A DNA stretch of 64,000 nucleotides from Acholeplasmataceae bacterium (GTDB lineage: Bacteria > Bacillota_I > Bacilli_A > Acholeplasmatales > Acholeplasmataceae), in contig OY763415.1 of the NCBI GenBank assembly GCA_963667565.1, forward strand, positions 1,686,089-1,750,088, written 5' to 3'. The position numbers were made by a program, and so were the translations under genes. Positions 10,214 through 41,257 of the stretch are shown one piece after another; position 1 is the first letter of the stretch; each line of letters opens with the position of its first letter. The notes under the pieces were generated by a model, which was not told the origin of the DNA, searched no databases, and saw only the letters and a program-made list of their open reading frames with translations.

Positions 10214-10276
10214 AAATTGGGGAATGATTGCACTTATAAGTTGAAATATACGCGACATTTAAGTGTTGCGTTTTTT
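10214..10276 (+). promoter_or_regulatory. Conserved leader/attenuator-like element, copy A
   Basis: GGGAATGatTGCACT, then hairpin cgcgaca/tgttgcg + T6; homologous to 20161-20240 and 39879-39953. Confidence 0.6.
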
Positions 10277-10297
10277 CATTTAAAAAATGGTGGGATA

Positions 10298-23859: not shown

Positions 23860-24858
23860 GTGAAAGATAAATATCCTATTTATAATGGTAATGTTGTAAC
23901 AACTAATTTTTTCTCTTATTTAAGAAAAAGAAAAATCACTCAAAAAAAATATGCTATCGATAACAATTTGGATCCCTCAATACTATCAAAATGGAAAAGT
24001 GGAGATTCACAATTGACAATTGAACAGGTTAGGCAAGCTGCTAAATATTTTGGAATAACTGCAAATGATTTAATGTATTCAGATATAGAAAAAATGAGAT
24101 TGGAAGTCATTGCAGATAAATCATATGACCCTATATTAGCACAGCAATCGATAGACATATTGCTTTTTAGAGACACATTCGAAAAACCAATAAAAATCAT
24201 ATTATTCTGTTTATTTGTTTTCCCACTTATTGCACTTATTATCTATCTCTTTAGAAACCAATCTGTCTATTATTCGTTACTAATGCCACTTGCAATACCA
24301 CTCTGTGTATTAGTCATAAAGAGAAATTCATATGAAAATAGAACGTTTATTATTAATTACTTGGATCAATTATTTTATAAAAGAGAAGATACAAAGAATC
24401 ATTTCTATTTCTTAAGTATAACAATAAGAATAATTTCTTTTTTATTGGTAGCTTATATCATGAACAAAGTAGCGATTAATTTTGCAACGACAGATGAATT
24501 TAACCAATCTTTACTTATTGCATTATTGATTATTTTGATGATGTCAGTTTTTAGTGTTATTTTAGAATTTTTTAGTTTACCTATAAATTTCAAACTTGAA
24601 ATTTATGATAATGAAATTGAAGGATATAATACAACTCGGTTGACACTGTTGATTCATTTTTCAGTATTTTCAGTTTTGGGTTTATTATTTTTAAGAGACT
24701 CTCAAGTATATTTGCAATTATTTTGCATTAGTTGTGCAATCTTATCGATAAATTTAATTGATTTTATCAAGATTTCAAAAGAATATTCTAAATATGAATT
24801 AGTTTATAAAGAAAACGAAAAAGAAGCAAGAAAATTATTTCCAAACATCATTGAATAA
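23860..24858 (+). CDS. XRE HTH fused to a multi-TM membrane domain
   Basis: TQKKYA...PSILSKWKSG...AKYFGIT; about 6 hydrophobic helices. Confidence 0.75.
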   Translation: MKDKYPIYNGNVVTTNFFSYLRKRKITQKKYAIDNNLDPSILSKWKSGDSQLTIEQVRQAAKYFGITANDLMYSDIEKMRLEVIADKSYDPILAQQSIDILLFRDTFEKPIKIILFCLFVFPLIALIIYLFRNQSVYYSLLMPLAIPLCVLVIKRNSYENRTFIINYLDQLFYKREDTKNHFYFLSITIRIISFLLVAYIMNKVAINFATTDEFNQSLLIALLIILMMSVFSVILEFFSLPINFKLEIYDNEIEGYNTTRLTLLIHFSVFSVLGLLFLRDSQVYLQLFCISCAILSINLIDFIKISKEYSKYELVYKENEKEARKLFPNIIE

Positions 24859-24991
24859 TCATCAATTTTGACTCAATTAATTGAAGTGTTTTCAATTGGT
24901 ATATCTTATTTATAAATAAAAGTATAAACTTTTACTGACAAGACATGTCAGATTTAGAGTTTGATATATTTTTATAGAAAGGAGATATAAA

Positions 24992-25372
24992 ATGAAAACA
25001 CTTTTTAAATTATCGCATTTACTAATTGTAGGATTATTTGTTATCACAGGGAACGATACATATGACTTGATTTTAGGTGCAGCAATTGCTGTGATAGCAT
25101 ATGTCTATGCATTCACTATTACTAGAAGATATTCAAATAGTTTGGGATATAATTCAATACTTATGAGTTTTGTACATTGGTCAGTAAGAACGATTATATC
25201 AATTATGATGATAGTTATAACAAGACCGATTTATATAATTGTGAAATCTATGGTAGGATTAACTAATGTTGATTTAACCGATTTAATTTCTGTTGTGATA
25301 TGTGCAGCAGTATGGATTTTTGTTGCTGAAACAGTGAAATCCATTACGGGATTAAGAAAAAATTATTGGTAA
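24992..25372 (+). CDS. Small multi-TM membrane protein
   Basis: SD aaggag; hydrophobic sequence. Confidence 0.7.
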   Translation: MKTLFKLSHLLIVGLFVITGNDTYDLILGAAIAVIAYVYAFTITRRYSNSLGYNSILMSFVHWSVRTIISIMMIVITRPIYIIVKSMVGLTNVDLTDLISVVICAAVWIFVAETVKSITGLRKNYW

Positions 25373-25404
25373 ATCATCAAATCAGTTAAGGAAAGGAGGA
25401 AAAT

Positions 25405-25578
25405 GTGAAAAACATATTAGTATCTGCAGTTTTAATCACCATATTAGGAATTGTAGTCACAGGGTCTATAGATGTTACAAGTTTAATTGATTTTATAGGA
25501 AATATTATACATTTATTAGGAATAATTATAAGTTTTATAATTCAAGTAATTATTAAAATTATTGAAGCTTTATTGTAA
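25405..25578 (+). CDS. 57-aa hydrophobic peptide not in the ORF track
   Basis: SD aaggagg + GTG; MKNILVSAVLITILGIVVTGSIDVTSLIDFIGNIIHLLGIIISFIIQVIIKIIEALL. Confidence 0.7.
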   Translation: MKNILVSAVLITILGIVVTGSIDVTSLIDFIGNIIHLLGIIISFIIQVIIKIIEALL

Positions 25579-25916
25579 CAATTTCAGGAGACAATTATGA
25601 GATATAAAAAGAAAAAATAGCCAGTATTTTCATGATGAGAAGCTGGTTTTTTTTATGCCATTAAATCAAAAATTAGTATTTATATTTAGGTTGAACAGTT
25701 TATTAATAAATAAAAGTTGCCATTAAAAACTGCAGCAATCTTTTGACATTGCATCGGTTATATCCCCTTACTTGATTTCACAAGATTACCAGTAACTACA
25801 CTTTCTTTTTTTACTTTTAACCATATATATTTTAAATATGTTCACTAAGAGATTCCATAAAACTACTGATTTATGAAAAAACCTTATCTCAAGAAAATAA
25901 ATGTGATACAATATAT

Positions 25917-26020
25917 TTGCGGAACGTAAATAAAATGGGTGTATACCTTCGTTCCGCAAACTATGGGTATACATCCACCTTAAAAATAAGTGAACAAAAT
26001 CTGTTTGCTTTTTTATTTTT
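25917..26020 (+). ncRNA. Predicted ~100-nt small RNA
   Basis: TG-n-TACAAT at 25904-25912; stems 25916-26/25950-60 and 25937-47/25966-76; terminator aagtgaaca/tgtttgctt + T run at 25988-26020. Confidence 0.55.
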
Positions 26021-26036
26021 TAGTGCTATAATGAAG

Positions 26037-26273
26037 TTGCGGAACGAAGGCGGTCATCGTTTTTATATAAGACCGAACACCCAAAAAGGTTATTAATTCT
26101 AGAAAGATAATCTGAGTAGGAAATATACCTATAGGCACACATTGAATCATGTGTAAGAAACGACAGTATAAGAAAATTCATTACTATGAGTATTTTTTCG
26201 TTTTTACATATTTGCCTAATTCACCAAATACTTATAATAATATTTTCTTCTGATCATCCAAAAGGAGAGAAAA
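26037..26273 (+). promoter_or_regulatory. Long structured 5' leader (or ncRNA) of the viperin operon
   Basis: Promoter ttgctt-N16-tataat with extended TG (26005-26032); stems 26051-55/26071-75, 26117-20/26128-31, 26132-37/26213-18 and 26149-63/26198-211. Confidence 0.55.
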
Positions 26274-26741
26274 ATGAAATATTATTTAGTTACATGTAAG
26301 TTTGGACACGTGGGCAGAGATAAGTATCTCCCATTAGACATTCCAATTATTGCAGATTCAATTAAAGAAGCTAGTTTTTATGCAAAAAATAAAGGTGGCG
26401 TAAAAAAAGATCATAAGGATTGGTGTTTAAGAGGACCTATAGAGGTTAGTAAAGAAATATTTGATAATGCTTTGCTTTCTTTTAAAAATGATATCTATTT
26501 TGAAAAGCATAGTAGACAACGGTTATATTTATTTGAAGATAGACTGATTGATGAAAAAAATTACACGAGAATTAACAACAGCAAAACAAACACTAAAATA
26601 TATAAGAAAAAACGAAGTAAAAGAGTTGTTGAATTTAGAAGAAGGAAACAATCAGAAATCATCAAAACATTGATGAATGAACAGGTATATGCTTTGCAAC
26701 ATTTTAGAAATTCTAATGTATTAATTGGGAGGGAAAATTGA
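26274..26741 (+). CDS. Basic hypothetical protein, possibly RNA-binding
   Basis: SD aaggag; YLVTCKFGHVG...ADSIKEA N-domain; Arg/Lys-rich tail; TGATG overlap with the viperin gene. Confidence 0.75.
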   Translation: MKYYLVTCKFGHVGRDKYLPLDIPIIADSIKEASFYAKNKGGVKKDHKDWCLRGPIEVSKEIFDNALLSFKNDIYFEKHSRQRLYLFEDRLIDEKNYTRINNSKTNTKIYKKKRSKRVVEFRRRKQSEIIKTLMNEQVYALQHFRNSNVLIGREN

Positions 26742-27589
26742 TGAATACATATCATGTGATTAATCTTCATCTAACTGAGGCTTGTAATTACAATTGTGTC
26801 CACTGCTTTGCAAAATTTAATGTTAGCAATGAGTTAGGAATCAGTGAATGGAAAGATGTGGTTGATCGTATCAAATTATATTTTGATGAACAGCATATCG
26901 TTTATGGAAGAATTAATCTTGCAGGAGGTGAGCCACTTCTTGTAACATACATTGATGAATTGATTGAATATATTAATTCACTTAACATAAAAGTATCCAT
27001 TATTACAAATGCTTCTAGATTAACTAGACAAATACTTGATAATTGGACAGGAAAAGTGGAAATGCTAGGGATTAGTATTGATTCACTTAATGATGATACT
27101 AATATTGCGATTGGAAGACATTTTAGAAATCAAACACTTAAATATGATTCACTAATTGATTTGATGAATTATGCTAAACAAAAAGGTATGCTTATTAAAG
27201 TGAATACTGTTGTATCAAAATTAAATTTGAAAGAAGATATTAAACATTTATATGAAGACGTAGCTTTCGATAGAATTAAAGTGTTACAAATGCGTATTAA
27301 TCAAAACTGTAATGAATCTGCTAAACATTTATCAATTACAAACTGTGAATTTAAAGAGTATCTTCAAAGGCTTAATATGAATAATATCATTATAGAACAT
27401 GAAAACGAGATTGATTCAGCATATATATTTATTGATCCAAAAGGGAATCTAGTATCAAATACAGATCATTTACATCAAAAAGTTGGATCTATATTTGATG
27501 AAAATTTAGGTGAACTAATTTTTAATGCGCATATTAATAATGAAAATTATAATAAAAGATATTTAAAGGGGAACATAAATGAATCTTAA
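26741..27589 (+). CDS. Prokaryotic viperin-like radical SAM enzyme (pVip)
   Basis: INLHLTEACNYNCVHCF (N.H + CxxxCxxC), INLAGGEP, SIITNAS, GISIDS, KVNTVV, RIKVLQ, YIFIDPKG. Confidence 0.85.
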   Translation: MNTYHVINLHLTEACNYNCVHCFAKFNVSNELGISEWKDVVDRIKLYFDEQHIVYGRINLAGGEPLLVTYIDELIEYINSLNIKVSIITNASRLTRQILDNWTGKVEMLGISIDSLNDDTNIAIGRHFRNQTLKYDSLIDLMNYAKQKGMLIKVNTVVSKLNLKEDIKHLYEDVAFDRIKVLQMRINQNCNESAKHLSITNCEFKEYLQRLNMNNIIIEHENEIDSAYIFIDPKGNLVSNTDHLHQKVGSIFDENLGELIFNAHINNENYNKRYLKGNINES

Positions 27590-30152
27590 ATTAAAAATAG
27601 CGTATAGCGAAAATAACGAATTTCAAAATTTGCAGGATGCTTCAAACCAATTGATGACATTAACTAATAATAATTCGATTAAATGCAAAGTCTCAACAAA
27701 AAGATTAGAGATTGAAAGAGATAGGAAAGATGAAAGAGATATAAGAAGTATTAAAAGAGTAGAAATGACGCTCAAATTACCTGATGGGTTTTTAATTTTA
27801 AGAGGGCACCTTGGATGCTCATTTAGAAGACCATTTGGTGGAGAATTCTATATGTTGGACTATAAAGTTATTCCTAATGGTGTGTTTGAAGATTTGGGTG
27901 GTGTTGAAATAGATATTCAATTTGATAACATGTTTCCGACAGAAATTACTCCCATGTTCAACGCTTTAAATGAAATTGTTAATGACAATAAATTTTTATT
28001 TAATATAGGGCAATTTGATGAATTTATGGAAGTCTTTAAATTCTATAAAAAAATATCGGATGAAATCAATAATAGTGCAACCTTTGAAATTATTGATTCA
28101 TCCCAACCATATTACTTTATATCAGTAGATACTAAAGAACTTTATGATGAGAATGGATTAGTATTAATGATATATACAGGAATTGAAAATTTTAATGATA
28201 GCGAAGATATTATCAAAGGTTATAAAGTTCCTGAATATGTATATGATAAATTTAATAATGAATTAAAAGAAAAGACTTATAAACTATGCGATATTGTCAT
28301 AAAAAACGAAGAACAAGCAATTCGTAAAATACGTAGAATGTCAGACAATTTATATGTAAGCAATATGCTTGTTGTCAATGAGCAGCAAGCAAAAAAATTA
28401 CATGAAGTTGAATTAATGAATATCCTAGTTAAAAAAGATATGATTATTCTAAGCGTTTTTGAAGATACATATATAGACGAAAGATATTTAAATCTATATG
28501 ACATGGGACAAAAAATTAAGATAGAGTCAATTGAAGACTCACTTAAGCTTATTAGTCAAGGCGATACAGGAGCAGCAATGCCAAAAATCAAGTACCTCAT
28601 AGGTGATGACGATATGCCAAGTGAATCAAAAAAAACAGAAAAGGTCCAAAAGTTTATTTCAGATGAATTAAGAAAAGCTCCAATCAAATCTGAATATACT
28701 AAAAACTTAAATGAGTCACAAACACTTGCCTTTTTAAAAGCAGTTGATGGATCACCTGTAACTTTAATTAAAGGCCCTCCAGGAACTGGAAAAACGCACG
28801 TTATTAATGCAATTACGCAATATATAACTAAAGAATTAAACGAAAAAGTTGTAATTTCATCTCAAACACATGTTGCTATTGACAACGTATTAGACAAATT
28901 GATGGAAAATCACGACTTAATTATTCCCAACAGAATTACCAACAGAAGAAATAAATATAGTATGGATGAAATTGATAAAACGTTGTATAAAACTTGGGGA
29001 ATGAAATTGACTAATCATTTAAGTCAAACAAAAAATAAGAAACTCGCATATGCCATTATTAAGGATTTGAAAAATTTCAATGGATTAAATGAAATTCAAT
29101 ACTCAAAAAACATGAAAGAAGAATTTTCAGTCATTGGGGCAACTACTACAACAGCTGCTATTGGTGGTAATAAAGGAAGAACATTGCTTAAAGATTATCA
29201 ATGGCTAATCATTGATGAAGTATCAAAATCTCCAATCACAGAAGTCTTAAGATATTTACCGTATGTAGATAAAATAATTCTAGTAGGAGATGACTATCAA
29301 TTATCTCCACTTCTTGAATTTAATAAAGAAGATGTTAAGCATCTACCTTCTTACGATGAAGAAATGTTTGATCGTTTACAAACGATATATGAGCAATCTG
29401 TTTTTTCTAAAACAATCAAAAAAGCCGAAAAAGCAGGAAGACTGATTTTACTTAATGAAAATTATAGATCTCTAAAACCAGTTCTTAATCTATATAATGT
29501 GTTTTATGATGGTGCATTACATAATATGAGAGAACAAGTTAATCCAGAAATTATACAATTTAACGATAAAGCGATTTTAAGTAATGATAGTCATGTTTTC
29601 TTTGTAGAAGCACTAGGTGGTAGTGAACAAGATGACAAGAAAACACATTCACGTTATAACATTCAGGAAGCTGTTGCAACAGCAAGAATTTTAGAAGATA
29701 TACTAGAAAATGTTATTAATCCAAAATCTGTAACAGCTGCAGCTATTTTCCCATATGCAGCTCAAATCCAATACTTTACCAAAGAGTACAAAGAATTGAT
29801 TAACAAGGCAAAAATAAACTTGAAAAGTTTTGAAATTGATACTGTAGATGCTTTTCAAGGAAGAGAGACAGATATTGTGTTAGTCAATACAGTAATTACT
29901 AGATTTGAAAAAAGGAATTTTTTAAGAGATTTTAGACGAATTAATGTATCAATGTCAAGAGCAAAAGATAAACTTATTGTTTTTGGTTCAAGAAATTTAG
30001 TGAAACTTGAAATGGATACACCAGAAGGTGGAACCAGACAATACTTCAATGAGATTATTAGTAATATAAAACAAAATGGAAAGCAAATTATAATTAATCA
30101 AAAGGGGGATGTAGTTAATAATGAAAGTAACAGTAAATTTAAATTTGCCTAA
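27579..30152 (+). CDS. SF1 (UPF1/DNA2-like, AAA_11/AAA_12) helicase with long unknown N-terminal region
   Basis: LNESQ, GPPGTGKT, HVAIDN, IIDEVS, VGDDYQL, ENYRS, TVDAFQGRE, RRINVSMSRAK. Confidence 0.9.
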   Translation: MNLKLKIAYSENNEFQNLQDASNQLMTLTNNNSIKCKVSTKRLEIERDRKDERDIRSIKRVEMTLKLPDGFLILRGHLGCSFRRPFGGEFYMLDYKVIPNGVFEDLGGVEIDIQFDNMFPTEITPMFNALNEIVNDNKFLFNIGQFDEFMEVFKFYKKISDEINNSATFEIIDSSQPYYFISVDTKELYDENGLVLMIYTGIENFNDSEDIIKGYKVPEYVYDKFNNELKEKTYKLCDIVIKNEEQAIRKIRRMSDNLYVSNMLVVNEQQAKKLHEVELMNILVKKDMIILSVFEDTYIDERYLNLYDMGQKIKIESIEDSLKLISQGDTGAAMPKIKYLIGDDDMPSESKKTEKVQKFISDELRKAPIKSEYTKNLNESQTLAFLKAVDGSPVTLIKGPPGTGKTHVINAITQYITKELNEKVVISSQTHVAIDNVLDKLMENHDLIIPNRITNRRNKYSMDEIDKTLYKTWGMKLTNHLSQTKNKKLAYAIIKDLKNFNGLNEIQYSKNMKEEFSVIGATTTTAAIGGNKGRTLLKDYQWLIIDEVSKSPITEVLRYLPYVDKIILVGDDYQLSPLLEFNKEDVKHLPSYDEEMFDRLQTIYEQSVFSKTIKKAEKAGRLILLNENYRSLKPVLNLYNVFYDGALHNMREQVNPEIIQFNDKAILSNDSHVFFVEALGGSEQDDKKTHSRYNIQEAVATARILEDILENVINPKSVTAAAIFPYAAQIQYFTKEYKELINKAKINLKSFEIDTVDAFQGRETDIVLVNTVITRFEKRNFLRDFRRINVSMSRAKDKLIVFGSRNLVKLEMDTPEGGTRQYFNEIISNIKQNGKQIIINQKGDVVNNESNSKFKFA

Positions 30153-31557
30153 AATGTTTAATTCATTTGAGGTAAGATATCACACATTTGAAAAAGTATC
30201 ATATGATAAATACTTGATAGCATCTGTTGTAAAAAACAGTGAGTCGAAAAATGAAGCATTACAATTTATTGATGATCTTACGGGGAAAGGTAGTTTAAAT
30301 AATCATTTCAAAAAAATATATGAAGAGATAACATATTTACCCGAAGAAGAATTAATGAAAGTTTTAAAATACTCAGAATATCCAGTACAAAGAATAGATA
30401 AATATAAATACATATATATTCCGTTATTAGATGTTTCTATTTTTAACCACAAAGTTATTCAAGGAAATATTGCAAATGATGAGATGTTTACTAGATTGTT
30501 AGTTAATAAAAATGGTACTTATATTGAATCAATATACCATCAATCAGACCCAGTCACAAATAAGGATATATATGAGGTTTTACTAGAAGAAGAATATATC
30601 AAAATATTAATTGAAGATGTTTATTGTGAAATAAACGATAATGATTTTCAAAGAATTGTATATAAAGAAAGTATGGACTTAAGTCTATATAATGGTGAAA
30701 CTTATACAAATCTTAAAAACAGCGGGTGGTTTCAATTAACAAATTCAACGTTAAATAATATCTTAAACGCACAAGATTATTATTATGAAAATGGAAATCA
30801 TTTTGGTATATATAATAATTATGTGAGAGAGTCTAAAATCGGATATAGTTGGGGACTTTACTGGATCAATGAAAGCACATTTTACTATGATAGCCCTAAA
30901 AATAATGAGATTTGTGAAAAAGTAGCTCATGTATTGTTAGAATCTGGTAGAATTAATGAGTTTAAGACCAAATCAATGATTAATATCATTAATAACACAA
31001 ATAGAGATTTACAACAAAGACTAATTAATTATATCCTTCAAAGAAAAAACTCTAAAGAACTAGCACTAATAGCGTTTATTTTAATTGATAAAGGATATGA
31101 GAAAGGCTGGGATTTAGAAGTTACTAACACGTTGTACCGATTTAAAGAAAGTGATAAACATTTAGTTGCTTTATACAAAGTTAATGCTTATATGAATTAC
31201 ACTATTGAAGAGATATTAAAAATTTATAAGTATAACAAAAAAATCCTAAACGATACCGATTTGAAGAAAGTTCATGAATATGAGAACAGTATACTTCAAA
31301 TACGAGACAGTATTAAAATCAAAATTGGCGATATTATGTCTTCCACCACAAGAGAAGATATTAAAAGTATGAAATTAAATGAAAATAATATTAAATTAAA
31401 AAAAATGATTAACGAAAAAATTGCACATAACAAAAAAGATATCCAAAAGATGGATTTGGAACAATTAAAGCAATATGCTGAAACAGTGGATCAAATGCAT
31501 AAATTATATCTTAAAGTAAATCATGAATTACAAAATTCAAAAGAGAATGAAAATTAA
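30121..31557 (+). CDS. Hypothetical protein coupled to the helicase gene
   Basis: 478-aa ORF overlapping the helicase 3' end; SD aggggg; coiled-coil-like C-terminus. Confidence 0.75.
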   Translation: MKVTVNLNLPKMFNSFEVRYHTFEKVSYDKYLIASVVKNSESKNEALQFIDDLTGKGSLNNHFKKIYEEITYLPEEELMKVLKYSEYPVQRIDKYKYIYIPLLDVSIFNHKVIQGNIANDEMFTRLLVNKNGTYIESIYHQSDPVTNKDIYEVLLEEEYIKILIEDVYCEINDNDFQRIVYKESMDLSLYNGETYTNLKNSGWFQLTNSTLNNILNAQDYYYENGNHFGIYNNYVRESKIGYSWGLYWINESTFYYDSPKNNEICEKVAHVLLESGRINEFKTKSMINIINNTNRDLQQRLINYILQRKNSKELALIAFILIDKGYEKGWDLEVTNTLYRFKESDKHLVALYKVNAYMNYTIEEILKIYKYNKKILNDTDLKKVHEYENSILQIRDSIKIKIGDIMSSTTREDIKSMKLNENNIKLKKMINEKIAHNKKDIQKMDLEQLKQYAETVDQMHKLYLKVNHELQNSKENEN

Positions 31558-31654
31558 TTGACTTTTTACCTTCTTTCATATAAAGTATGTAAGGTGCTAT
31601 TAATATAATATTAATAAATGGTATTAAATACATATAAAAAGAAGGTATATTTTC

Positions 31655-33274
31655 ATGATTGCAGTATCAAACTTAAGTTTAGTCTTTTCAGATAAAAAAT
31701 TATTTGAAGATGTCAATTTAAAATTTACTCAAGGTAATTGCTATGGCGTTATTGGTGCCAATGGTGCTGGTAAATCCACATTTCTAAAACTTTTATCTGG
31801 AGAAAGAGAACCATCAAGCGGTAATGTCATTATTGATAAAGGAAAAAGACTTGCAGTCTTAAACCAAAATCAAAATGCTTTTGATGATTTTACAGTTCTT
31901 CAAACAGTGATGATGGGACATAAAGAACTCTTTGAAATCTCTCAAAAGAAAGAAGTCTTATATGCTAAAGAAGACTTTAATGATGAAGATGGATTAGAAC
32001 TTGCAGAACTTGAAGGTAGATTTGCAGAACTTGATGGATGGAATGCAGAATCAGATGCTGAAAAACTTTTAAATGGGTTAAAAGTACCCCAAAAAGATTT
32101 TCATAAACTGATGGGTGATGTTTTACCTAAAAATAAAGTCAAAGCACTTCTTGCTCAAGCGTTATTTGGTAATCCTGATATTCTGCTTTTAGATGAACCA
32201 ACCAATAATTTAGATTTTGAAGCCATTGGATGGCTTGAAAACTTTTTAATGGATTATGAGAATACTGTCATCACAGTATCTCATGATCGTCATTTCTTAA
32301 ATAAAGTATGTACACACATGGTTGATATTGATTACTTCCAAGCAAAACTATACACAGGAAACTACGATTTTTGGAGAGAGTCCTCTGAACTTGTTCAAAA
32401 GCTTATGGCTGATAAAAACAAGAAGAAAGAAGAACGCATTGAAGAATTAAAAGCCTTTATCGCAAGATTTTCGGCAAATCTTTCAAAATCATCTCAAGCA
32501 ACCTCTAGAAAAAAAGCATTGGAAAAAATCGAATTAGACGAAATCATCCCATCATCAAGAAAATATCCATATATTGGATTTGAAATTGATAAGTCTTTAG
32601 GTAGAGATGTCTTAGAAGTAGAAGACCTATCTTATACACAAGATGGTAAGAAATTATTTGAACATGTCTCATTTATCATTCATAATGGCGATAAGGTTGC
32701 TTTAATGGGTGAAAATGACTTAGCAAAAACAGCATTACTAAAAATCCTAGCAGGTGAACTAAAACCAGATACTGGTAAAATCACATGGGGTCAAACAGCA
32801 ACCTATGCTTATCTTCCAAATGAAAATGAAAAATACTTTGATAAAAAGAATTTAAATCTTGTTGATTGGCTTCGCCAATTTTCAACAGATCCTGCAGAAG
32901 CATATGTACGCACCTTTTTAGGGCGTATGCTCTTCTCTGGAGATTCAGCTTTAAAAGAAGTCAAAGTCTTATCAGGTGGAGAAAAAATGCGTTTGATGTA
33001 CTCTAAGATGATGATGGCTAAAGCCAACACCCTCTTAGTGGATTCACCTACCATCCATTTAGATCTTGAATCCATTCAAGCAGTTAACAAAGGATTAGAA
33101 GAATTTAAAGGCTCATGTATCGTCGCATCTCATGATCATGACTTATTAGAGACAGTATGTAATAAAGTCATTGAAATCGGCGATTTAGGGGCTTATAGCT
33201 ATGAAGGCGACTTTGATGAATTCATTACTAATCAAGATATCAAATCAAAAATTGAAGCTTTATATAAAGCATAA
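31655..33274 (+). CDS. ABC-F ATPase (YbiT/YkpA subfamily)
   Basis: Tandem ABC domains: GANGAGKST, LLDEPTN, LSGGEK; second site degenerate; no TM segments. Confidence 0.9.
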   Translation: MIAVSNLSLVFSDKKLFEDVNLKFTQGNCYGVIGANGAGKSTFLKLLSGEREPSSGNVIIDKGKRLAVLNQNQNAFDDFTVLQTVMMGHKELFEISQKKEVLYAKEDFNDEDGLELAELEGRFAELDGWNAESDAEKLLNGLKVPQKDFHKLMGDVLPKNKVKALLAQALFGNPDILLLDEPTNNLDFEAIGWLENFLMDYENTVITVSHDRHFLNKVCTHMVDIDYFQAKLYTGNYDFWRESSELVQKLMADKNKKKEERIEELKAFIARFSANLSKSSQATSRKKALEKIELDEIIPSSRKYPYIGFEIDKSLGRDVLEVEDLSYTQDGKKLFEHVSFIIHNGDKVALMGENDLAKTALLKILAGELKPDTGKITWGQTATYAYLPNENEKYFDKKNLNLVDWLRQFSTDPAEAYVRTFLGRMLFSGDSALKEVKVLSGGEKMRLMYSKMMMAKANTLLVDSPTIHLDLESIQAVNKGLEEFKGSCIVASHDHDLLETVCNKVIEIGDLGAYSYEGDFDEFITNQDIKSKIEALYKA

Positions 33275-33291
33275 TACATAAGTATTAATAT

Positions 33292-33327
33292 AAGATGTTC
33301 ATATCCTCGTATATGAACATCTTTTTT
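33292..33327. terminator. Bidirectional terminator between the ABC-F and resolvase genes
   Basis: 13-bp perfect stem aagatgttcatat/atatgaacatctt. Confidence 0.8.
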
Positions 33328-33928
33328 ATAGAGTGAAAGAATCCGCGTTTTTATACTTATAAAATGTGCTTTTACACATTTTAAGTTTCTTTAAAGCTAA
33401 GGATAAAGATAACTCGTTGTGATCATATTTATCCAAAATCTGATTAAAATTTTCAGGCAAGATATACTTGGGTCTTCCAAGATGCTTGCCTTTTTCTTTT
33501 GCAATTCTAATACCCTCTGCTTGTCTTTGCTTTATATTTTGTCTTTCATTTTCAGCAACAAAACTTAAAACTTGTAAAACAATATCACTAATAAACCTTC
33601 CAACTAAATTTTCTGGTTGAACGCGTGTATCTAAAAGGGGCATATCAAGAACTAAAATATCAGCATTGATATGTTTAGTGATATGCCCCCATTCTTCAAT
33701 AATCATTTCGTAATTACGACCTAACCTGTCAATACTTTTAATAATTAGTAAGTCTTTAGATTTTAGTTTTGATATTAACTTTTGATAGTTTTCTCTATTA
33801 AAATCTTTTCCACTTTGTTTGTCAATATAAATATTTTTTCTTTTAATGTCAAGTTTTTCAATTTCATCTAGTTGACGATCAATAGATTGAGTCACACTTG
33901 ATACTCTAATATACGCATATGTTGTCAT
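33326..33928 (-). CDS. Serine recombinase (resolvase/invertase)
   Basis: YAYIRVSS, DKQSGK, SIDRLGR, C-terminal HTH. Confidence 0.93.
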   Translation of the reverse strand: MTTYAYIRVSSVTQSIDRQLDEIEKLDIKRKNIYIDKQSGKDFNRENYQKLISKLKSKDLLIIKSIDRLGRNYEMIIEEWGHITKHINADILVLDMPLLDTRVQPENLVGRFISDIVLQVLSFVAENERQNIKQRQAEGIRIAKEKGKHLGRPKYILPENFNQILDKYDHNELSLSLALKKLKMCKSTFYKYKNADSFTL

Positions 33929-34021: not shown

Positions 34022-34180
34022 ACTTCAAGTTCCATAAAGGTACACTTTTAAGGAATATCGGTTTTTAAAGATAAAGACTATATTTTAGTTAAATTGTTGA
34101 TATTTATTGATCAAATCTCTTAAAAATGATACGATCTATATATAAAACTTCAAGTTGATAAAGGTGTACCTTTAAGGAAT
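34022..34180. repeat. Two related palindromic ~35-bp sites (34022-34056 and 34147-34180), probable res subsites
   Basis: acttcaagttccataaaggtacacttttaaggaat vs acttcaagttgataaaggtgtacctttaaggaat. Confidence 0.65.
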
Positions 34181-34205
34181 GTTTTTATTAACAGAAAGAG
34201 GCAAC

Positions 34206-35039
34206 ATGCTTACACCGGTTATAAAATGGGTTGGAGGGAAAAGACAATTACTTGATGAGATCAAAAAACGCATGCCTAAACAGTACAATAGATATTTTGA
34301 ACCATTTGTTGGTGGCGGAGCATTGTTTTTAGAACTTTCCCCAAAAGAAGCGCATATTAACGATATTAATCATGATTTATATGCAATTTATAAATCTTTA
34401 CAGGATGAAGAACTATTCAAAGATCTATTATTAAGATTAGATCGGCACCAAAAAAATCATTCAGAAGAATATTATTATAAAGTTAGAGAACAAGATAGAA
34501 AAGAAAAATATGAACATACATCATTAAGTGAAAAAGCAGCTAGAGCTATTTACTTAAATAAAGCAGGATATAACGGATTATATCGTGTGAATCAAAGAGG
34601 ATACTTTAATGTGCCATCAGGTCATTACACAAAAGTGAATCTATATGATGAAATAAATATAAACAGTGTTCATGAATACATGAAGCAAAATAAAATATTG
34701 ATCACAAATAACTCTTATGAAAAAACGGTTGAAAATGCACAACAAGAAGATTTCATATATTTTGATCCACCATATGATAAATTGGAAAATAAAGCTTCAT
34801 TTACAGCATATTCAAAAAATGATTTTAATAGAGATGATCAAATAAAATTATTTAATACATTTAAAGAATTGTCTGATAAAGGCATTTATGTAATGTTAAG
34901 CAATCATAACACGGAATTTATTAGAGACTTATACAAAGATTTTAATATTCATGTTGTGTCAGCAACCCGCATGGTGAACTCTAATGCCCAAAAAAGAGGC
35001 CCTATTGAAGAAGTGATTATTACTAATTATGAGAACTAA
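34206..35039 (+). CDS. dpnM: Dam/DpnM-type GATC adenine methyltransferase
   Basis: KWVGGK, EPFVGGG, NGLYRVN, FDPPY. Confidence 0.9.
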   Translation: MLTPVIKWVGGKRQLLDEIKKRMPKQYNRYFEPFVGGGALFLELSPKEAHINDINHDLYAIYKSLQDEELFKDLLLRLDRHQKNHSEEYYYKVREQDRKEKYEHTSLSEKAARAIYLNKAGYNGLYRVNQRGYFNVPSGHYTKVNLYDEININSVHEYMKQNKILITNNSYEKTVENAQQEDFIYFDPPYDKLENKASFTAYSKNDFNRDDQIKLFNTFKELSDKGIYVMLSNHNTEFIRDLYKDFNIHVVSATRMVNSNAQKRGPIEEVIITNYEN

Positions 35040-35799
35040 ATACTATCAAGATTTAGATTTTACATTGTTATTAGGTGATGTGAATGAAACTCTAAAATCT
35101 ATTAGAAAACAAAGTATTGATATGATCTTTGCTGATCCCCCATATTTTTTATCTAATGATGGTATTACATGTCAATCTGGACAAATGGTATCTGTTAATA
35201 AGGCTTCTTGGGATCAAACAAATATGACAATTCAGGATAAACTTAAATTTAATAGAAAATGGATTAAAAGTTGTAAACGTGTATTAAAAGACACAGGTAC
35301 GATATTTATATCAGGAACACTTCATAATATCTATATTGTTGGTGTCGCATTAGAACTTGAAGGATTTCAAATCATTAACAATATTACATGGCAAAAGAAA
35401 AATCCTCCACCCCATCTTGCAAGAAAAGCTTTTACACACTCAACAGAAACCATTTTATGGGCTAGAAAGAAAAGTCAAAAATACTATTTTAATTATGATT
35501 TAATGAAATCAATGAACGAAAATAAACAAATGAAAGATGTATGGCAATATGCTATTACTAAGCAAAGCGAGAAGATATGTGGAAAGCACCCAACACAAAA
35601 ACCATTAGATTTGTTAAAAAGAATAGTGCTTGCTTCAACAAAAGAAAATGATTTGGTATTAGACCCATTTAATGGTAGCGGAACGACTGGTATTGCATCA
35701 ACTCTATTAAATAGGAAATATATAGGTATAGATATTGAACAAAAATATTTAGATGTGTCAATTTGTAGATATAAAGGGATAAAGGGGGAACAAAAATGA
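35029..35799 (+). CDS. dpnA: DpnA-type beta-class adenine methyltransferase
   Basis: FADPPYFLSNDG, HPTQKP, LDPFNGSGTT. Confidence 0.9.
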   Translation: MRTKYYQDLDFTLLLGDVNETLKSIRKQSIDMIFADPPYFLSNDGITCQSGQMVSVNKASWDQTNMTIQDKLKFNRKWIKSCKRVLKDTGTIFISGTLHNIYIVGVALELEGFQIINNITWQKKNPPPHLARKAFTHSTETILWARKKSQKYYFNYDLMKSMNENKQMKDVWQYAITKQSEKICGKHPTQKPLDLLKRIVLASTKENDLVLDPFNGSGTTGIASTLLNRKYIGIDIEQKYLDVSICRYKGIKGEQK

Positions 35800-36647
35800 T
35801 TAAAAGATCTTTTGAAGAAATGTTAAGCACACTAAAATCAAGCATTACACCTTATGATTTTTTTGTTGATTTTAATAAAGTATTTAAGAATGTTAAAGAA
35901 TTAGAGATATTATTAAATAGTATGAATTATTTGTTAGGTAAAGAAGATTTTGATCAAGCTTTCAAAGATCTATTTGAACAAAATTCAAATATTTATAAAG
36001 CAATTCCTATTCTATTAGCAACAAGAGAAAACAAAATTGAAATCTTAGAAGATAAATTAGTCATTTATGATTTTATGCATGCTCAATCTGTTGATGATTA
36101 TTTAATGTTCATTAAAAATACTAATCTCATAAAATTATTTACTAAAGATGGTGTAAAAAATTTAGTGGATTATGTTATAGGCGTTGAAGTAGGGCTTGAT
36201 ACGAATTCAAGAAAAAACAGAACAGGAACACTGATGGAAAATAAGGTGGAGAAGTTTATAAAAGATTCTGTAGTGTTCAAAGATTATATAACACAAGCAA
36301 GAATCATTGATATTAAAAACAATTTAGGCATCGATCTATCATATTTATTAGATGTTGATCAAAATAAAAGATTTGATTTTGCAGTTAAATCACAAGATAA
36401 ATTGTTTTTAATAGAAACGAATTACTATCGAACAAGTGGATCAAAACTAAATGAAACCGCAAGAAGCTATACTAAATTATCTGAAGATATTAGTAAAATA
36501 GATGATGTATATTTTATTTGGATAACAGATGGGCAGGGGTGGCTATCAACAAAAAATAATTTTGAAGAAGCATATGATCATATTGATTACCTATTTAATT
36601 TATATGATTTAGAACAAGGCATTTTGAAGGAATTATTTTTTAAGTAG
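35796..36647 (+). CDS. dpnB: DpnII-type restriction endonuclease
   Basis: GVEVGLDTNSRKNRTG, KRFDF, IETNYY..SGSKLNETARSY, WITDG. Confidence 0.9.
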   Translation: MIKRSFEEMLSTLKSSITPYDFFVDFNKVFKNVKELEILLNSMNYLLGKEDFDQAFKDLFEQNSNIYKAIPILLATRENKIEILEDKLVIYDFMHAQSVDDYLMFIKNTNLIKLFTKDGVKNLVDYVIGVEVGLDTNSRKNRTGTLMENKVEKFIKDSVVFKDYITQARIIDIKNNLGIDLSYLLDVDQNKRFDFAVKSQDKLFLIETNYYRTSGSKLNETARSYTKLSEDISKIDDVYFIWITDGQGWLSTKNNFEEAYDHIDYLFNLYDLEQGILKELFFK

Positions 36648-36693
36648 AAAAAAGAAGTTCTCATATGTATAATATATATGAGGATGATCAAAG

Positions 36694-36951
36694 ATGAATA
36701 AATTTAATTTGGCACAATATACCAAAAAAGTTATGAAAGAATTAGAAGTAGAAAATTTATATCCCACACAACTCAATATTTGTTATAAAGTTATTGAATA
36801 TTATGAAAACAATTATGGACAAGTGACAGAAAACAAAGATGAATTCATTAATTATATAGTTAATAAAATATATGAGATTTATATTGATCAAGATGAATCA
36901 GAGAGTCTTGACCTACTCATAGAAAGTATAATTAAGGAAGAAATAATTTAG
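36694..36951 (+). CDS. Small acidic hypothetical protein
   Basis: SD gagg; followed by a terminator-like inverted repeat. Confidence 0.55.
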   Translation: MNKFNLAQYTKKVMKELEVENLYPTQLNICYKVIEYYENNYGQVTENKDEFINYIVNKIYEIYIDQDESESLDLLIESIIKEEII

Positions 36952-36965
36952 TAATTAGATTAAAA

Positions 36966-37010
36966 TAAAAAGCAAAAATTATGATTTATATGATAATTTT
37001 TGCTTTTTTA
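36966..37010 (+). terminator. Terminator
   Basis: aaaaagcaaaaattat/ataatttttgcttttt inverted repeat. Confidence 0.65.
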
Positions 37011-37115
37011 TTTCTAAAATGAATAAATATTTGACAGTAGATCCAAAAAATGATCTAATTAAAATAAAGGACAACAATGCTGGGGCAATAGAGATATTGA
37101 AAGGGAATGAATTAG

Positions 37116-39011
37116 ATGAATAATTATTGGGAACTCAATGAAGTTGATGTTAATTTATTGGTAAATGACATTAAAAAGAAAAAGGTAACTATACCTTCTT
37201 TTCAAAGGGGCGTCGTTTGGAATGATAAAAAAAGAGAATTGCTGATTGAATCCATGAAGAATGGTTATCCTTTTGGATCGCTTTTAATTTATGAAGATGA
37301 AGATGGTAAGAAACAATTAATAGATGGGCTTCAAAGAAGTATGACAATGTATGGATTCTTAACAAATCCCGCATTTTATTTCAATGAAAATGATATTGAC
37401 CCGAATGTAATTAGTAAAATTATTGAATTAGCAGGATATCCAGGATCAAAAGAAGAAATTAAGAAAAAATTATATTTAATTATTCAAAATGAAATTAAAA
37501 TGAAATATCAAACAATGTCAGAACTTCAAAATTTGCAAATCTATAGTTTTGCTTCAGCAATTAGTAAAGAGCATCCTATTTTAAAAGGTAAAGAAGAAAC
37601 TATTATGAAATTAATAGAGCCATTTTTGCTAAATTTTAAAGAAAAATGCGGAAAGCTGTCATTTACTAAAATACCAGCAATTATATTTCATGGAGATGCG
37701 CAAGCATTACCAATCATTTTTGAGCGAATTAATAAAGAGGGAGTTAAGCTTAATAAATATCAAATATATGCTGCATCTTGGACAAATAGCATTAGATTCA
37801 AAATAGATAATGTCAAACTAAAGAAAATATTAAATTATGTAGCAGAAAGATACGATGCTTTAGGAAAATTAGAAGGGCTTAATAGTATTATTTATGTTGA
37901 TGACTATAATTCATCTGATTTTAAAAACAAAGGAGAAGTCAACACTTTTGAATTAGGATACGGTTTTGGGAAATTGTTAATTGAAAAGTTTCCAGAATTG
38001 TTTAATAGTTCAAATACAGATAACATGATAGACAGTGTTGGTTTCAATATAATTAATGCTTGTCTTGGACAAAAAAACTCAAAAATGAGTAGATTACATT
38101 TAGAATTAAAAAAATTTGATAATCAAACTATAAATATGTTTTTGGATAAAATTATTGAATGCACTGAACAAGTGAATTCAATTTTAGAACCATTCAGTAA
38201 ATTTAAAGGAAATAAGCGAAGCTCTAAAAAATTCAATATTGCTCATACAGAATTGCAAATAGTATCAATTATTGCTTCTTTAATGTTAATCAAATATGGA
38301 AGAATAGAAAAAAATGAATTTGAAGATTTGTTTGTAATAAACTATAGTTTTGAACAATCTAATACTGAATGGAAAGAAATAAATAAGGACTTCAAGCAAA
38401 ATGTAAGAATCTACTATTTGCTTGATATCATTAATCAAAGATGGAAAGGTACGGGAGATAAAACATTAGACAGCATCATATATAATCCAAAATACTATTG
38501 TAATCATTATCCAAAGGAATCATTAGTTACTGATTTAAAATCATGGTATCAACGAGATAAATTAAACAGAAATGAACGAGATAAAATTAAAGAACCTAAA
38601 GATTTAGAAAAATTGCTTTTAAATGTGGTTTACTTAAATGAATTTAAAGCAATTGATCAACTTGATGAATCTAAATATGATATAGAACATTTGTGCCCTA
38701 AAGAATTAATGAAAAATAAATTAAAACACTATCCTCATTTATCCTTACCTCTTAGTTCCATAGGTAATTTATGTTTGTTACCAGAATATCAAAATAGAGC
38801 AAAAAAAGATAAAACAATTTATGAAGACGCTTCATATAAAAAAACAATTAACGTTAGTGAAGTGGAAAAAAAGTTTGCTTTCACTACAGAAGAAAACATG
38901 AATTTTTTATTTATGGAAATTAATGCAGAAAAATTCAAAGAAGCATATGAAAAATTTATAGATGAGAGATTTGAAATTATAATTGAAAAAATAGCAAGTG
39001 CATTGTATTGA
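37116..39011 (+). CDS. GmrSD-like (DUF262 + DUF1524) modification-dependent restriction protein
   Basis: IPSFQRGVVW, IDGLQR, IFERIN; C-terminal DIEHLCP...SIGNLCLL...N. Confidence 0.85.
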   Translation: MNNYWELNEVDVNLLVNDIKKKKVTIPSFQRGVVWNDKKRELLIESMKNGYPFGSLLIYEDEDGKKQLIDGLQRSMTMYGFLTNPAFYFNENDIDPNVISKIIELAGYPGSKEEIKKKLYLIIQNEIKMKYQTMSELQNLQIYSFASAISKEHPILKGKEETIMKLIEPFLLNFKEKCGKLSFTKIPAIIFHGDAQALPIIFERINKEGVKLNKYQIYAASWTNSIRFKIDNVKLKKILNYVAERYDALGKLEGLNSIIYVDDYNSSDFKNKGEVNTFELGYGFGKLLIEKFPELFNSSNTDNMIDSVGFNIINACLGQKNSKMSRLHLELKKFDNQTINMFLDKIIECTEQVNSILEPFSKFKGNKRSSKKFNIAHTELQIVSIIASLMLIKYGRIEKNEFEDLFVINYSFEQSNTEWKEINKDFKQNVRIYYLLDIINQRWKGTGDKTLDSIIYNPKYYCNHYPKESLVTDLKSWYQRDKLNRNERDKIKEPKDLEKLLLNVVYLNEFKAIDQLDESKYDIEHLCPKELMKNKLKHYPHLSLPLSSIGNLCLLPEYQNRAKKDKTIYEDASYKKTINVSEVEKKFAFTTEENMNFLFMEINAEKFKEAYEKFIDERFEIIIEKIASALY

Positions 39012-39027
39012 AAGAGGAGGTATAAAA

Positions 39028-39813
39028 ATGATTGAAATAATTAAGAATCCTACATACTCTTTTTTCTTTTCACAAATTGAAGCAACTAAAAAAGAGTTAA
39101 TTATAATCACACCGGATATTGATGGAGATATACTAGAACATATACTTGCACGAAAAAATGAAAATGTATTTATTTCTTTGATTACATCACAAAATGTTGC
39201 TAAATATCTATTTAAAAAAACTAATCTTAATATATTAAATACATTGATTGATAGGCATCACAAAATCTACAACTATCAAAATTTAAATGCCAACATATAC
39301 ATATTTGATCAAAAATTAGTATGGATCACGTCAAGTGATTTGACACAAGGTGGATTAGTAACTAATTTTGAATATGGTATATTATCATCAGAAGAAAATA
39401 TTTTAAAAGAAGTTATAGTCGATTACAAATATATTATTGATGATGAGTCTTGTGGAAAAATAAAAAAAGAGCATATTAAATTTATCCAACAACAAATTGA
39501 AACTTTTGATGATACAGGTGTATCAATTGATCAAACAGGCGACTATCGATTATCAATCAAAAACTATCAAAAAACATCCGATATTTTAAAAGGATGGAAC
39601 AAACTAATTTTCGATGCTTTAGAAGAACATATTAAGAAGGATTATTTCAATTTAAATGATGTATATAAACTAGAAATGATATTTGCAATTAATTATCCTG
39701 AAAATTACCACATCAAAGACAAAATAAGACAAGTATTGCAATATTTAAGAGATTATGGATATATAAAATTTATTGATGATCAAGGTAATTATAAAAAATT
39801 ATGGACTAAATAA
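39028..39813 (+). CDS. PLD-like domain fused to a DpnI-type winged helix, with degenerate HKD motif
   Basis: SD aggagg before ATG 39028; LNANIYIFD..ITSSDLT; C-terminal YPENYHIKDKIRQVLQYLRDYG. Confidence 0.75.
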   Translation: MIEIIKNPTYSFFFSQIEATKKELIIITPDIDGDILEHILARKNENVFISLITSQNVAKYLFKKTNLNILNTLIDRHHKIYNYQNLNANIYIFDQKLVWITSSDLTQGGLVTNFEYGILSSEENILKEVIVDYKYIIDDESCGKIKKEHIKFIQQQIETFDDTGVSIDQTGDYRLSIKNYQKTSDILKGWNKLIFDALEEHIKKDYFNLNDVYKLEMIFAINYPENYHIKDKIRQVLQYLRDYGYIKFIDDQGNYKKLWTK

Positions 39814-39878
39814 TTAGTTTTTAATATTTGATTTCTATTGAAAATAATGTATTATATAATTAAGTTAATAATACAACG

Positions 39879-39953
39879 AGAATTAGTAAATTAGGGAATG
39901 TTTGCACTAAATGAGTTGATAATAAAAAGCGACTTTTTATGTGTCGCTTTTTT
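39879..39953 (+). promoter_or_regulatory. Conserved leader/attenuator-like element, copy C
   Basis: GGGAATGttTGCACT, then hairpin aaaaagcgac/gtcgcttttt + T tail. Confidence 0.6.
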
Positions 39954-40005
39954 GTTTAATTAAATTATTCCAACATCATTAATCAAATATTAAAAAGGAG
40001 GATTT

Positions 40006-40851: not shown

Positions 40852-41257
40852 AAAACTAGCTATGCGATTATGGAAAGATATATTTGGAACAAATTTATGG
40901 GCTACAGATTGTTTTGGAACTTGGATGTATCGAGATGATTATGGAGATGTAAATACTGTGAGAATTAGACCAAATGGCAATGGAAAATATTTTAATTATG
41001 GTTGGAATATAGATCATATTTTTCCACTGGATAGAAATGGGAAAGATGCAATGAACAACTATGAACCTATGCATCACATAAACAATAAAATCAAATCAAA
41101 CAATCTTAATTTTAAAATTGACGAAGTTCCATTTCAAGTCGTTAAGTGTGAAATTTGTGGATCTCATGGTCTCTATGGTAAAGGAATAATAAATCAACAT
41201 ACTGGACAAAGAGTGGACTGGAAAGGCGTGCAAAAAAGATATTACATTTCAAATTAG
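40835..41257 (+). CDS. HNH endonuclease-like protein
   Basis: GWNIDHIFP...G.D...N..PMH..NN..K; overlaps the NYN gene 3' end. Confidence 0.75.
   Translation: MAQVSKKLAMRLWKDIFGTNLWATDCFGTWMYRDDYGDVNTVRIRPNGNGKYFNYGWNIDHIFPLDRNGKDAMNNYEPMHHINNKIKSNNLNFKIDEVPFQVVKCEICGSHGLYGKGIINQHTGQRVDWKGVQKRYYISN

Follow-up and report, generated by a model that had tools for sequence, protein, structure and literature searches.

Two predicted, mutually pairing RNAs accompany a UPF1-like helicase and its partner gene in an Acholeplasmataceae operon: a candidate RNA-gated defence module with a viperin as passenger

A stretch of 64,000 nucleotides (nt) from contig OY763415.1 of an Acholeplasmataceae bacterium, referred to here as the window, contains an operon of four genes, the second of which encodes a viperin and the third a superfamily 1 (SF1) helicase, and the locus raises the question of whether these genes form one defence system or are separate modules that share a transcript. 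An earlier note on this DNA proposed a joint viperin-helicase system and named separate modules under one RNA-controlled promoter as the alternative; comparison of related loci supports the alternative. The best explanation, to which a probability of about 0.5 is given as a whole, is that gene 3 and gene 4 belong to a mobile defence module of the helicase-effector kind, similar to Mokosh and CoCoNuT, that is gated by a trans-acting RNA switch and has RNA A, RNA B, the helicase and gene 4 as its core. The two tandem non-coding RNAs (ncRNAs), predicted at 25917-26273 upstream of the range that the earlier note covered, are the third core part of this module.

The four open reading frames (ORFs) described in the earlier note are present in the sequence, overlap on the same strand by 1 nt (TGATG), 11 nt and 32 nt, and are supported as one operon (Table 1). 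The whole stretch was recovered intact as one contig in 2/4 other public runs (X4 and X9, either of which may be kin of the source), so the window is not an assembly artefact.

Table 1. Predicted features of the operon and of the RNA units that precede it (positions in the window).
Feature	Position	Strand	Description
Promoter of RNA A	25884-25912	+	Predicted; TG-extended -10 TACAAT at 25907-25912, weak -35
RNA A	25917-26021	+	About 65-nt H-type pseudoknot and hairpin/U-tract terminator (25988-26021)
Promoter of RNA B and operon	26024-26032	+	Predicted; TG and TATAAT
RNA B, operon leader	26037-26273	+	b2, P1, b1, P2, b3, variable hairpins
Gene 1	26274-26741	+	155 amino acids, basic protein, heads the window operon
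Gene 2	26741-27589	+	Prokaryotic viperin, 282 amino acids from the ATG of TGATG; 283 from TTG at 26738
Gene 3	27579-30152	+	857 amino acids, UPF1/Sen1-type SF1B helicase
Gene 4	30121-31557	+	478 amino acids, helicase partner

The comparison covered 33 loci with gene 4, namely the window, 29 loci from genome and metagenome scans, and L012, L060 and L110, some of which are near-identical kin (L026 and L043), and a fixed sample of 301 genomes of the order was used for co-occurrence counts. Gene 3 is located directly upstream of gene 4 in 31/31 loci with upstream DNA (two loci are cut inside gene 4), and this comparison of gene order shows that genes 3 and 4 are obligately linked. The module is found in Acholeplasmatales, other Bacilli and Clostridia. 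Within the sample of 301 genomes, gene 4 occurs in 9, prokaryotic viperin (pVip) in 16 and gene 1 in 40, and a pVip lies beside the helicase pair in only 2 genomes, the other 14/16 being located elsewhere, which contradicts the claim of an obligate four-gene viperin-helicase system. The expectation that the four genes co-occur elsewhere held for L018 and L019, but the exact order is found in just 3/33 loci including the window, all from a single helicase clade. The fourth member of that clade, L017, is the nearest relative of the window (74% helicase identity) and has no viperin.

The viperin lies within the predicted helicase operon in 6/33 loci and within about 3.5 kb of it in 7. In the window, L018 and L019 gene 1 precedes it and the helicase follows, in L027, L039 and L044 it comes downstream of gene 4, and in L021 it is two genes upstream of the RNA. 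The helicase-adjacent viperins do not form one clade on the viperin tree (5 label changes, at least 3 of them forced), and the same operon slots hold other cargo, including a second small leader family, a double-HEPN-motif protein, a DEDDh exonuclease and an HNH gene. Since viperin occurs in few loci and several lineages and other cargo takes the same slots, both gene 1 and gene 2 are passengers; judged from these comparisons, the viperin is an optional passenger that the helicase operon has recruited several times, and the locus set shows viperins moving between operons as cargo. The model of the earlier note, in which viperin and the helicase pair cooperate and the helicase acts on transcripts terminated by 3'-deoxy-3',4'-didehydro-nucleoside triphosphates (ddhNTPs), draws on the same six loci, with their two positions and several viperin lineages, and on the enrichment of pVip in gene-4 genomes (3/9 compared to 13/292; Fisher p 0.009, with kin that are not independent). 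The clustering of defence genes accounts for this enrichment, and against the model 27/33 helicase loci have no in-operon viperin, 14/16 sampled pVips are elsewhere, L017 lacks one, and double-HEPN-motif, DEDDh and HNH genes occupy the same slots, so that it has a low probability. Because viperin has been captured repeatedly, a functional link to the helicase pair retains some plausibility.

The RNA units were found by alignment of the DNA upstream of the operons. Unit A starts with TTGCGGAACG at 25917 and unit B starts with the same bases at 26037. Stem 1 of RNA A pairs 25917-25926 with 25950-25959 and stem 2 pairs 25937-25947 with 25966-25976; in this predicted pseudoknot 87.5% of cells are paired, compared to 33-62% in slid controls, 8/20 pairs are changed on both sides, and 0/500 shuffles scored as high in pairing and covariation. 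A terminator-like hairpin with a U-tract follows RNA A in 17/18 loci, a count made without a shuffle control. The distance from the end of the -10 box to the first G is 6 nt for RNA A in 15/18 loci and 7-8 nt in the other 3; for RNA B it is 6 nt in 18/18 loci, often with TTGACA at -35; the mean match of the -10 box is 5.1/6, compared to 3.4 at random nearby positions. Additionally, in 17/18 loci no promoter-like site between B and the first ORF scores as high as the RNA B promoter. RNA B is composed of b2 (26037-50), hairpin P1, b1 (26078-82), hairpin P2 (26083-26120) and b3 (26124-34), and P2 features an invariant internal loop, AAAA/GAGUA, which we take to resemble the loop-E motif. The cis helices of RNA B (two hairpins) are 86% paired with 8/14 pairs changed on both sides, and a hairpin with a U-tract at 26150-26210 has a z-score of -3.27. 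An Rfam search of window positions 24800-32000 with E-values up to 1 gave no match for the RNAs. The RNA pair was not found in the literature searched by title or abstract start, a search outside which the supplements of PMC11090510 and of RNA-motif surveys could list it. In L022, L032, L037, L042 and L043 the leader also contains a GCGCG-centred near-palindrome downstream of b3, which could be an operator.

RNA A presents three predicted docking sites for RNA B, a1 (25937-41), a2 (25946-59) and a3 (25961-71). The b2:a2 pairing of 12-16 base pairs (bp) and the b1:a1 pairing of 5-9 bp are each found in 19/19 loci, and b3:a3 pairing of at least 9 bp with at most one G-U is found in 14/19. The calculated energy of the b2:A duplex is -25.0 kcal/mol for cognate and -16.6 kcal/mol for non-cognate pairs (0/20000 permutations, with kin that are not independent). 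A 1-nt deletion in L018 is common to all three copies of the sequence, that is, the start of A, the docking site of A and the start of B. The cis state of b1 is compensated in L012 and its trans state is compensated in the L024 group. Cofolding gives a gain over shuffled A in 12/14 loci; in L029 and L034 the shuffle is equal or better. The possibility that the A-B complementarity is an inverted duplication or recombination site at the DNA level, rather than RNA pairing, gains something from the direct repeat with which A and B also open; it is highly improbable, as G-U pairs are tolerated in the trans helices, the hairpins covary and vary in length, promoters stand at a fixed distance from both RNA starts with a terminator between them, and no joined or inverted form of the locus was seen in 4 runs. 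The ideas that the RNA segments target another genomic site or copy 23S rRNA were considered and rejected, since a search of their own genome at one mismatch showed b2, b3 and the 3' core to be unique.

The RNA core pattern is found in 7/301 genomes, each of them one of the 9 gene-4 genomes, and in 0/292 genomes without gene 4; as the pattern was derived from those loci, the positive half of the 7/9 count is circular, and only the zero is free of this. Of the 44 sources searched with a covariance model, 42 were loci that had mostly been collected for their viperin or gene 1, and the sole match was the helicase locus L059. A search of 151 genomes of the phylum with the RNA only gave one new match, G676, in which genes 1, 3 and 4 then followed, and RNA A of G676 features new sequence variants of all three trans helices that match fully. 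Among the 33 loci, 19 have the RNA pair, 4 (L027, L030, L035 and L039) lack it despite a visible 5' end, 9 are cut off, and L044 has kept a decayed RNA B (1700-1790) and no RNA A. The RNA is scattered over the helicase tree, and the 5 RNA changes on that tree overstate losses, because the contig-truncated L020, L026 and L060 were scored RNA-negative. The RNA-less loci keep intact genes 3 and 4; a WYL-type gene accompanies three of the four and a CARF gene the remaining one, and WYL gave no match in the upstream genes scanned at RNA-bearing loci (at least 100 amino acids, within 4 kb, some contigs being short). The RNA is thus more probably regulatory than catalytic, since these loci dispense with it and 3/4 have a WYL-type gene, in a contrast that rests on 4 loci. 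These comparisons show that the predicted RNA pair is restricted to helicase loci, covaries with itself and tracks the helicase. The RNA as a promoter cassette of gene 1 was rejected, since it is absent at gene-1 loci without the helicase and present at helicase loci without gene 1. The RNA core gave no match in viral contigs, and one phage match was at chance level; no public run was listed as a carrier of the RNA, a result that points neither way.

The identification of gene 3 as an SF1 helicase was confirmed by Pfam matches to AAA_11 and AAA_12 above cut-off and by intact motifs I-VI, with the Walker A motif GPPGTGKT at 399 and DEVSK in the motif beginning at 544; the helicase motifs are invariant in 26 homologues. 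The best PADLOC match is MkoA (E 1.4e-71), which covers the helicase core only, from residue 365. The protein is divided into an unassigned alpha/beta domain (1-135), stalk helices (142-163 and 310-342), a 1B beta-barrel (165-309) and RecA domains that carry a short helical insertion (466-517). The N-terminus was studied with an AlphaFold model of residues 1-381, which has a pLDDT score (predicted local distance difference test) of 77. The barrel matches SETX (Z 7.2, root-mean-square deviation (rmsd) 3.1, 84 aligned), Sen1 (Z 7.1) and EF-Tu domain II (Z 7.3), and its range of Z 6.5-7.2 against SETX and Sen1 is middling and consistent with the sequence family. In the model, gene 3 has a UPF1/Sen1-like stalk and 1B beta-barrel before RecA1. 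The fold search with residues 1-135 gave lists dominated by barrel matches, in which a SmpB-like fold was neither shown nor excluded, and gene 3 had no match in PHROGs. Variants of the helicase are seen in other loci. S1 repeats are present at its N-terminus in the RNA-less L027 (3042-6446) and L030 (2565-5363), the helicase of L060 (4274-7015), where the operon start is cut off, has an additional unassigned N-terminal domain of about 75 amino acids, and in L040 (1216-3777), from an organism with TGA=Trp, gene 4 is whole under table 4 and the helicase is still in three pieces.

Gene 4 belongs to a closed family of 129 representatives with no remote homologues seen, and it is a confidently modelled protein (pLDDT 91) without an assigned effector domain. 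Its layout consists of an N-terminal winged-helix region (about 25-90), a beta-rich middle, a helical repeat and a C-terminal helical bundle. Residues 27-90 match BrxA weakly (Z 6.3, rmsd 2.5, 64 aligned). Fold searches (Foldseek PDB, VIA wide and a viral library) gave no clear match beyond helical bundles and a weak winged helix, the ESM Atlas search gave no usable match, HEPN was not among the top fold matches of the whole model, and the best PHROGs match had an E-value of 0.065. The PLD and MkoB profiles had no match in gene 3, gene 4 or 44 gene-4 homologues. R411 and H436 are invariant in the C-terminal bundle and N431 is 81% conserved, with no contiguous RxxxxH, and this bundle is a candidate divergent RNase or RNA-binding site. 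A comparison with a neighbouring double-HEPN-motif family of three sequences gave a probability of 0.5%, from a very shallow profile.

The gene 3-gene 4 complex was predicted with a score of 0.70, compared to 0.00 for the best control, with runs that agree in at least 99% of contacts and a partner pLDDT of 83; the score mark was reached by 116/157 solved and 2/215 mismatched pairs, a rough guide for the alignments used here. The predicted interface places gene 4 residues 25-85 on gene 3 residues 466-517, so that in the model the winged helix of gene 4 docks on the helical insertion of the helicase, like CnuE on CnuH. The available portion of PMC11090510 proposes a CnuE-CnuH contact of the same type and describes such helicases as generally upstream of an elongated winged helix-turn-helix effector gene, and the complex score may mirror likeness to known helicase-partner pairs because such contacts are described there.

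In the proposed mechanism RNA A would be made from its own promoter, and its pseudoknot would hide a2 under its own 5' end. Nascent B, which shares the first 9-10 nt of A and carries a 3-6 nt CCUU-complementary toehold, would displace this 5' end and zip onto a2, then a1, then a3. The last two C's of b1 could enter only one of two pairings at a time, the cis one that closes the AAAA/GAGUA loop or the trans one with a1, so that RNA A would toggle the loop and cap the mRNA 5' end; b1 is taken to mark the switch because both pairing states are compensated and both therefore seem selected. If true, such a tandem pair of RNAs with a common start, in which one RNA opens the self-occluded pseudoknot of the other, would be a natural toehold switch. 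The loop would most likely be read by the helicase complex, with feedback on the whole transcript, because the helicase and gene 4 are the only proteins always present. The first gene after RNA B is exchangeable between loci, and since there is also no consistent effect on the ribosome-binding site, control would more likely act through termination or stability of the whole transcript than at one ribosome-binding site. During infection, the 5'-to-3' helicase would pass RNA on to the gene-4 effector, and viperin and gene 1 would be cargo under promoter B. A dedicated RNA pair with strong covariation and natural single-base compensations makes this a directly testable question of regulation.

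Several results join the circular half of the 7/9 count, the small number of RNA-less loci and the possible bias of the complex score in weighing against this RNA-gated defence module. A standard scanner run on the window listed neither RNA promoter nor any terminator, and the -35 boxes of the window are weak. A hairpin with a U-tract after RNA B was found in only 9/18 loci. Three loci (L024, L025 and L042) have lost the b3:a3 helix, and in two more (L043 and L034) it is weak. The distances of RNA and helicase correlate only modestly (rho 0.32, 100/10000 permutations). In partition-function folding, done with a program that cannot represent the crossing a3:b3 helix and with 2/18 start codons set wrongly, the addition of A did not alter access to the ribosome-binding site or the GAGUAGG segment in any consistent way. 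Finally, searches with gene 4 gave no nuclease family or fold. A simple translational riboswitch was dropped on the ribosome-binding-site result, and a leader peptide after GAGUAGG was dropped as its start codon is not conserved.

The same RNAs could instead be a two-piece antitoxin or sensor, in which the A:B intermolecular pseudoknot is a permanent subunit that restrains the effector until loss of the RNA by phage action or helicase unwinding frees its toxicity, as in type III toxin-antitoxin systems and AbiF. ToxI of the type III system ToxIN is a pseudoknot RNA. The unpaired nucleotides are invariant across distant hosts, the RNAs are exclusive to the helicase-gene 4 pair, and an S1 RNA-binding domain is fused to the helicase in two of the four RNA-less loci (L027 and L030) and is unseen at RNA-bearing N-termini, all of which would suit a restraining subunit, as would the order of promoter, ncRNA, leaky terminator and effector, which resembles that of RCd22/AbiF in the part of bioRxiv 2025.04.15.648962 available. 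This reading is rather unlikely, as genes 3 and 4 are intact in the four RNA-less loci, a terminator after B is seen in only 9/18 loci, the mutually exclusive pairings of b1 fit a switch better than a fixed fold, and no toxin fold was found in gene 4. A structured ncRNA that heads an effector operon under a common promoter is shared with AbiF/RCd22 as far as that part of bioRxiv 2025.04.15.648962 describes it. The predicted RNAs here differ from those of AbiF and type III systems in being two, separately promoted and mutually pairing, without tandem repeats and without an Rfam abiF match, and the proteins are a helicase and its partner instead of the Pfam/PADLOC families of Abi_2, ToxN or AbiQ. 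RoxS, FasX and the c4 RNA of phage P1 act in trans by pairing with the 5' region of a transcript and can alter its stability or termination. Here, the small RNA is encoded directly upstream of its target, has the same start and would pair at three sites with crossing helices. In a further, tentative reading, held to be somewhat unlikely, the A:B pair assembled by toehold strand exchange would be a working RNA subunit of the helicase-effector complex, and phage-disturbed transcription would lead the helicase to dismantle or load on the RNA and so turn on an undescribed nuclease site of gene 4 (R411/H436). If true, the complex would represent a new class of anti-phage machine that contains RNA.

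The protein pair itself is a new McrBC-free variant of a predicted helicase-effector kind. The available portion of PMC11090510 describes CoCoNuT CnuH as a UPF1-like helicase with a stalk and beta-barrel and an overlapping downstream gene, features shared with the present pair, and the N-terminal winged helix of CnuE on the helicase insertion corresponds to the contact modelled for gene 4. In contrast to CoCoNuT types II and III, McrB/McrC was found neither in the window nor among the neighbour families that recur in 30 loci, a scan that covered part of the neighbours, and TerY-P genes were likewise not found in the loci examined. The helicase insertion is short rather than a long coiled coil, and gene 4 has no recognisable HEPN RxxxxH, PLD or Vsr effector. 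Mokosh types I and II share the UPF1-like helicase core and a partner gene in the available part of bioRxiv 2022.05.11.491447. The Ser/Thr kinase domain fused to the helicase of Mokosh type I is absent from gene 3 by Pfam and the N-terminal model, and the PLD nuclease of types I and II has no counterpart in genes 3 and 4, nor does gene 4 match MkoB. The pair would work like CnuH/CnuE or Mokosh (available portions of bioRxiv 2022.05.11.491447 and 2025.07.10.664194), yet without McrBC, kinase or PLD. The same part of bioRxiv 2022.05.11.491447 does not mention an ncRNA component, and the words 'ncRNA' and 'non-coding' are absent from the main text of PMC11090510, the supplements being outside this check. 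In these sources no RNA component is described for UPF1-like helicase-effector systems such as Mokosh and CoCoNuT. No description of the helicase-gene 4-RNA module was found by title or abstract start in the literature searched, which did not cover most subscription papers and supplements.

The setting of the module bears on whether it acts in phage defence. Its neighbours across loci include type I restriction-modification (RM), Tiamat-like, OLD and UvrD, HerA, AbiEii, GmrSD, pVip and CARF genes. The earlier description of the window as defence-rich is correct at about 10-25 kb from the operon, where type I RM, TmtA (E 1.5e-205), DdmD-like, GmrSD and DpnI-like genes are located, but not for the direct neighbours, which are a helix-turn-helix membrane gene, a small gene of no known family and an ABC-F ATPase. 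These neighbours, together with the patchy distribution (9/301 genomes) and the recombinases or integrases near several loci, would suit a selfish addiction module, or machinery for RNA quality control, that gathers in variable regions. Such a non-defence role is improbable, since the closest profile is Mokosh MkoA, defence genes adjoin the module across loci, and no match was found in plasmids (where the helicase N-terminus was searched) or viral contigs.

The viperin assignment of gene 2 is secure, with a match to NCBIfam NF038283 viperin_w_prok of 234.5 bits (cut-off 180, next family far lower) and to the PADLOC pVip profile with an E-value of 8.7e-69. The radical S-adenosylmethionine (SAM) motif CxxxCxxC is CNYNCVHC, and GGEP is also present. 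Alignment with solved viperins places Asn240 at the position of mouse Cys314 (the Cys of FLDC in 7n7h), and Asn at this beta-8 loop pocket position is tied to promiscuous ddhNTP synthesis in the available part of bioRxiv 2023.09.13.557418. Gene 2 is a true prokaryotic viperin of the predicted promiscuous pocket type, and it shares with other prokaryotic viperins the full-length match above cut-off, the radical SAM motif and the Asn-type pocket, being an ordinary member of its family. No nucleotide kinase was found among the flanking genes scanned; this is usual, an adjacent kinase being present in 12% of bacterial viperins according to the same part of bioRxiv 2023.09.13.557418, and what sets gene 2 apart is its place as cargo in the operon of another system. 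In L044 (5824-7485) a viperin fused to a C-terminal domain of about 270 amino acids directly follows gene 4.

Genes 1 and 4 were described as unknown in the earlier note, and neither has a Pfam, PADLOC or NCBIfam family. Going by database names, homologues of both occur in an Acholeplasma laidlawii record (P0061 and P0023). Gene 1 belongs to an unnamed family with an invariant GHxG and K44 in the alignment, and it has no PHROGs family either; an Atlas search gave unnamed clusters only, with RpoY at 0.80 as a mere lead. In the 40 genomes of the sample it is usually the first gene of unrelated operons, and it is present in 11/33 helicase loci, so that by its gene contexts it is a facultative head gene of many operons and cargo here. 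In L089, L094, L100, L101, L103, L104 and L106 a gene-1 homologue heads an operon of two similar-looking genes, and the two genes behind the homologue in L035 and L100 are an NrdG-like activase and NrdD. Several gene-1 operons have a divergent WYL-type or small gene upstream. Because of this and its repeated head position, gene 1 may serve to regulate such cassettes in general.

Other cargo and neighbours were seen in individual loci. A family of basic proteins of about 110 amino acids without a Pfam family replaces gene 1 in L024 (1829-2164), L025, L030, L039 (two copies), L042 and L043; it is confined to one helicase clade, and its RNA-bearing members have b3:a3 lost or weak. A protein of about 470 amino acids is inserted between RNA B and the helicase in L021 (5086-6504), L032 (6129-7514) and L045 (508-1896). 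It has no Pfam or PADLOC family, features the HEPN-like motifs R[DT]INAH and RNCW[FL]H, and is a candidate new double-HEPN RNase. RNase III-like genes are located upstream of the RNA pair in L019 (5075-5515) and L033 (2467-3513), possibly by chance. In L110 (3157-8637; G676, read with table 4) the module is located about 1 kb upstream of a four-gene set, which by its N-terminal motifs we take to be cas9-cas1-cas2-csn2.

In the window, the type I RM locus has two hsdS genes that flank an integrase. Between this locus and the Tiamat-like TmtA (13719-18698) lies a DdmD-like gene pair, which consists of a 1120-amino-acid gene at 10217-13579 with a weak DdmD match (E 1e-18) and an unassigned 484-amino-acid gene before it (8706-10160). 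A second defence cluster at 34179-41257 contains GmrSD, a PLD/DpnI-C protein, NYN and weak HNH genes, as well as two methylase-like genes and one restriction-enzyme-like gene that were called from motifs, and it is adjoined by a resolvase at 33326-33928.

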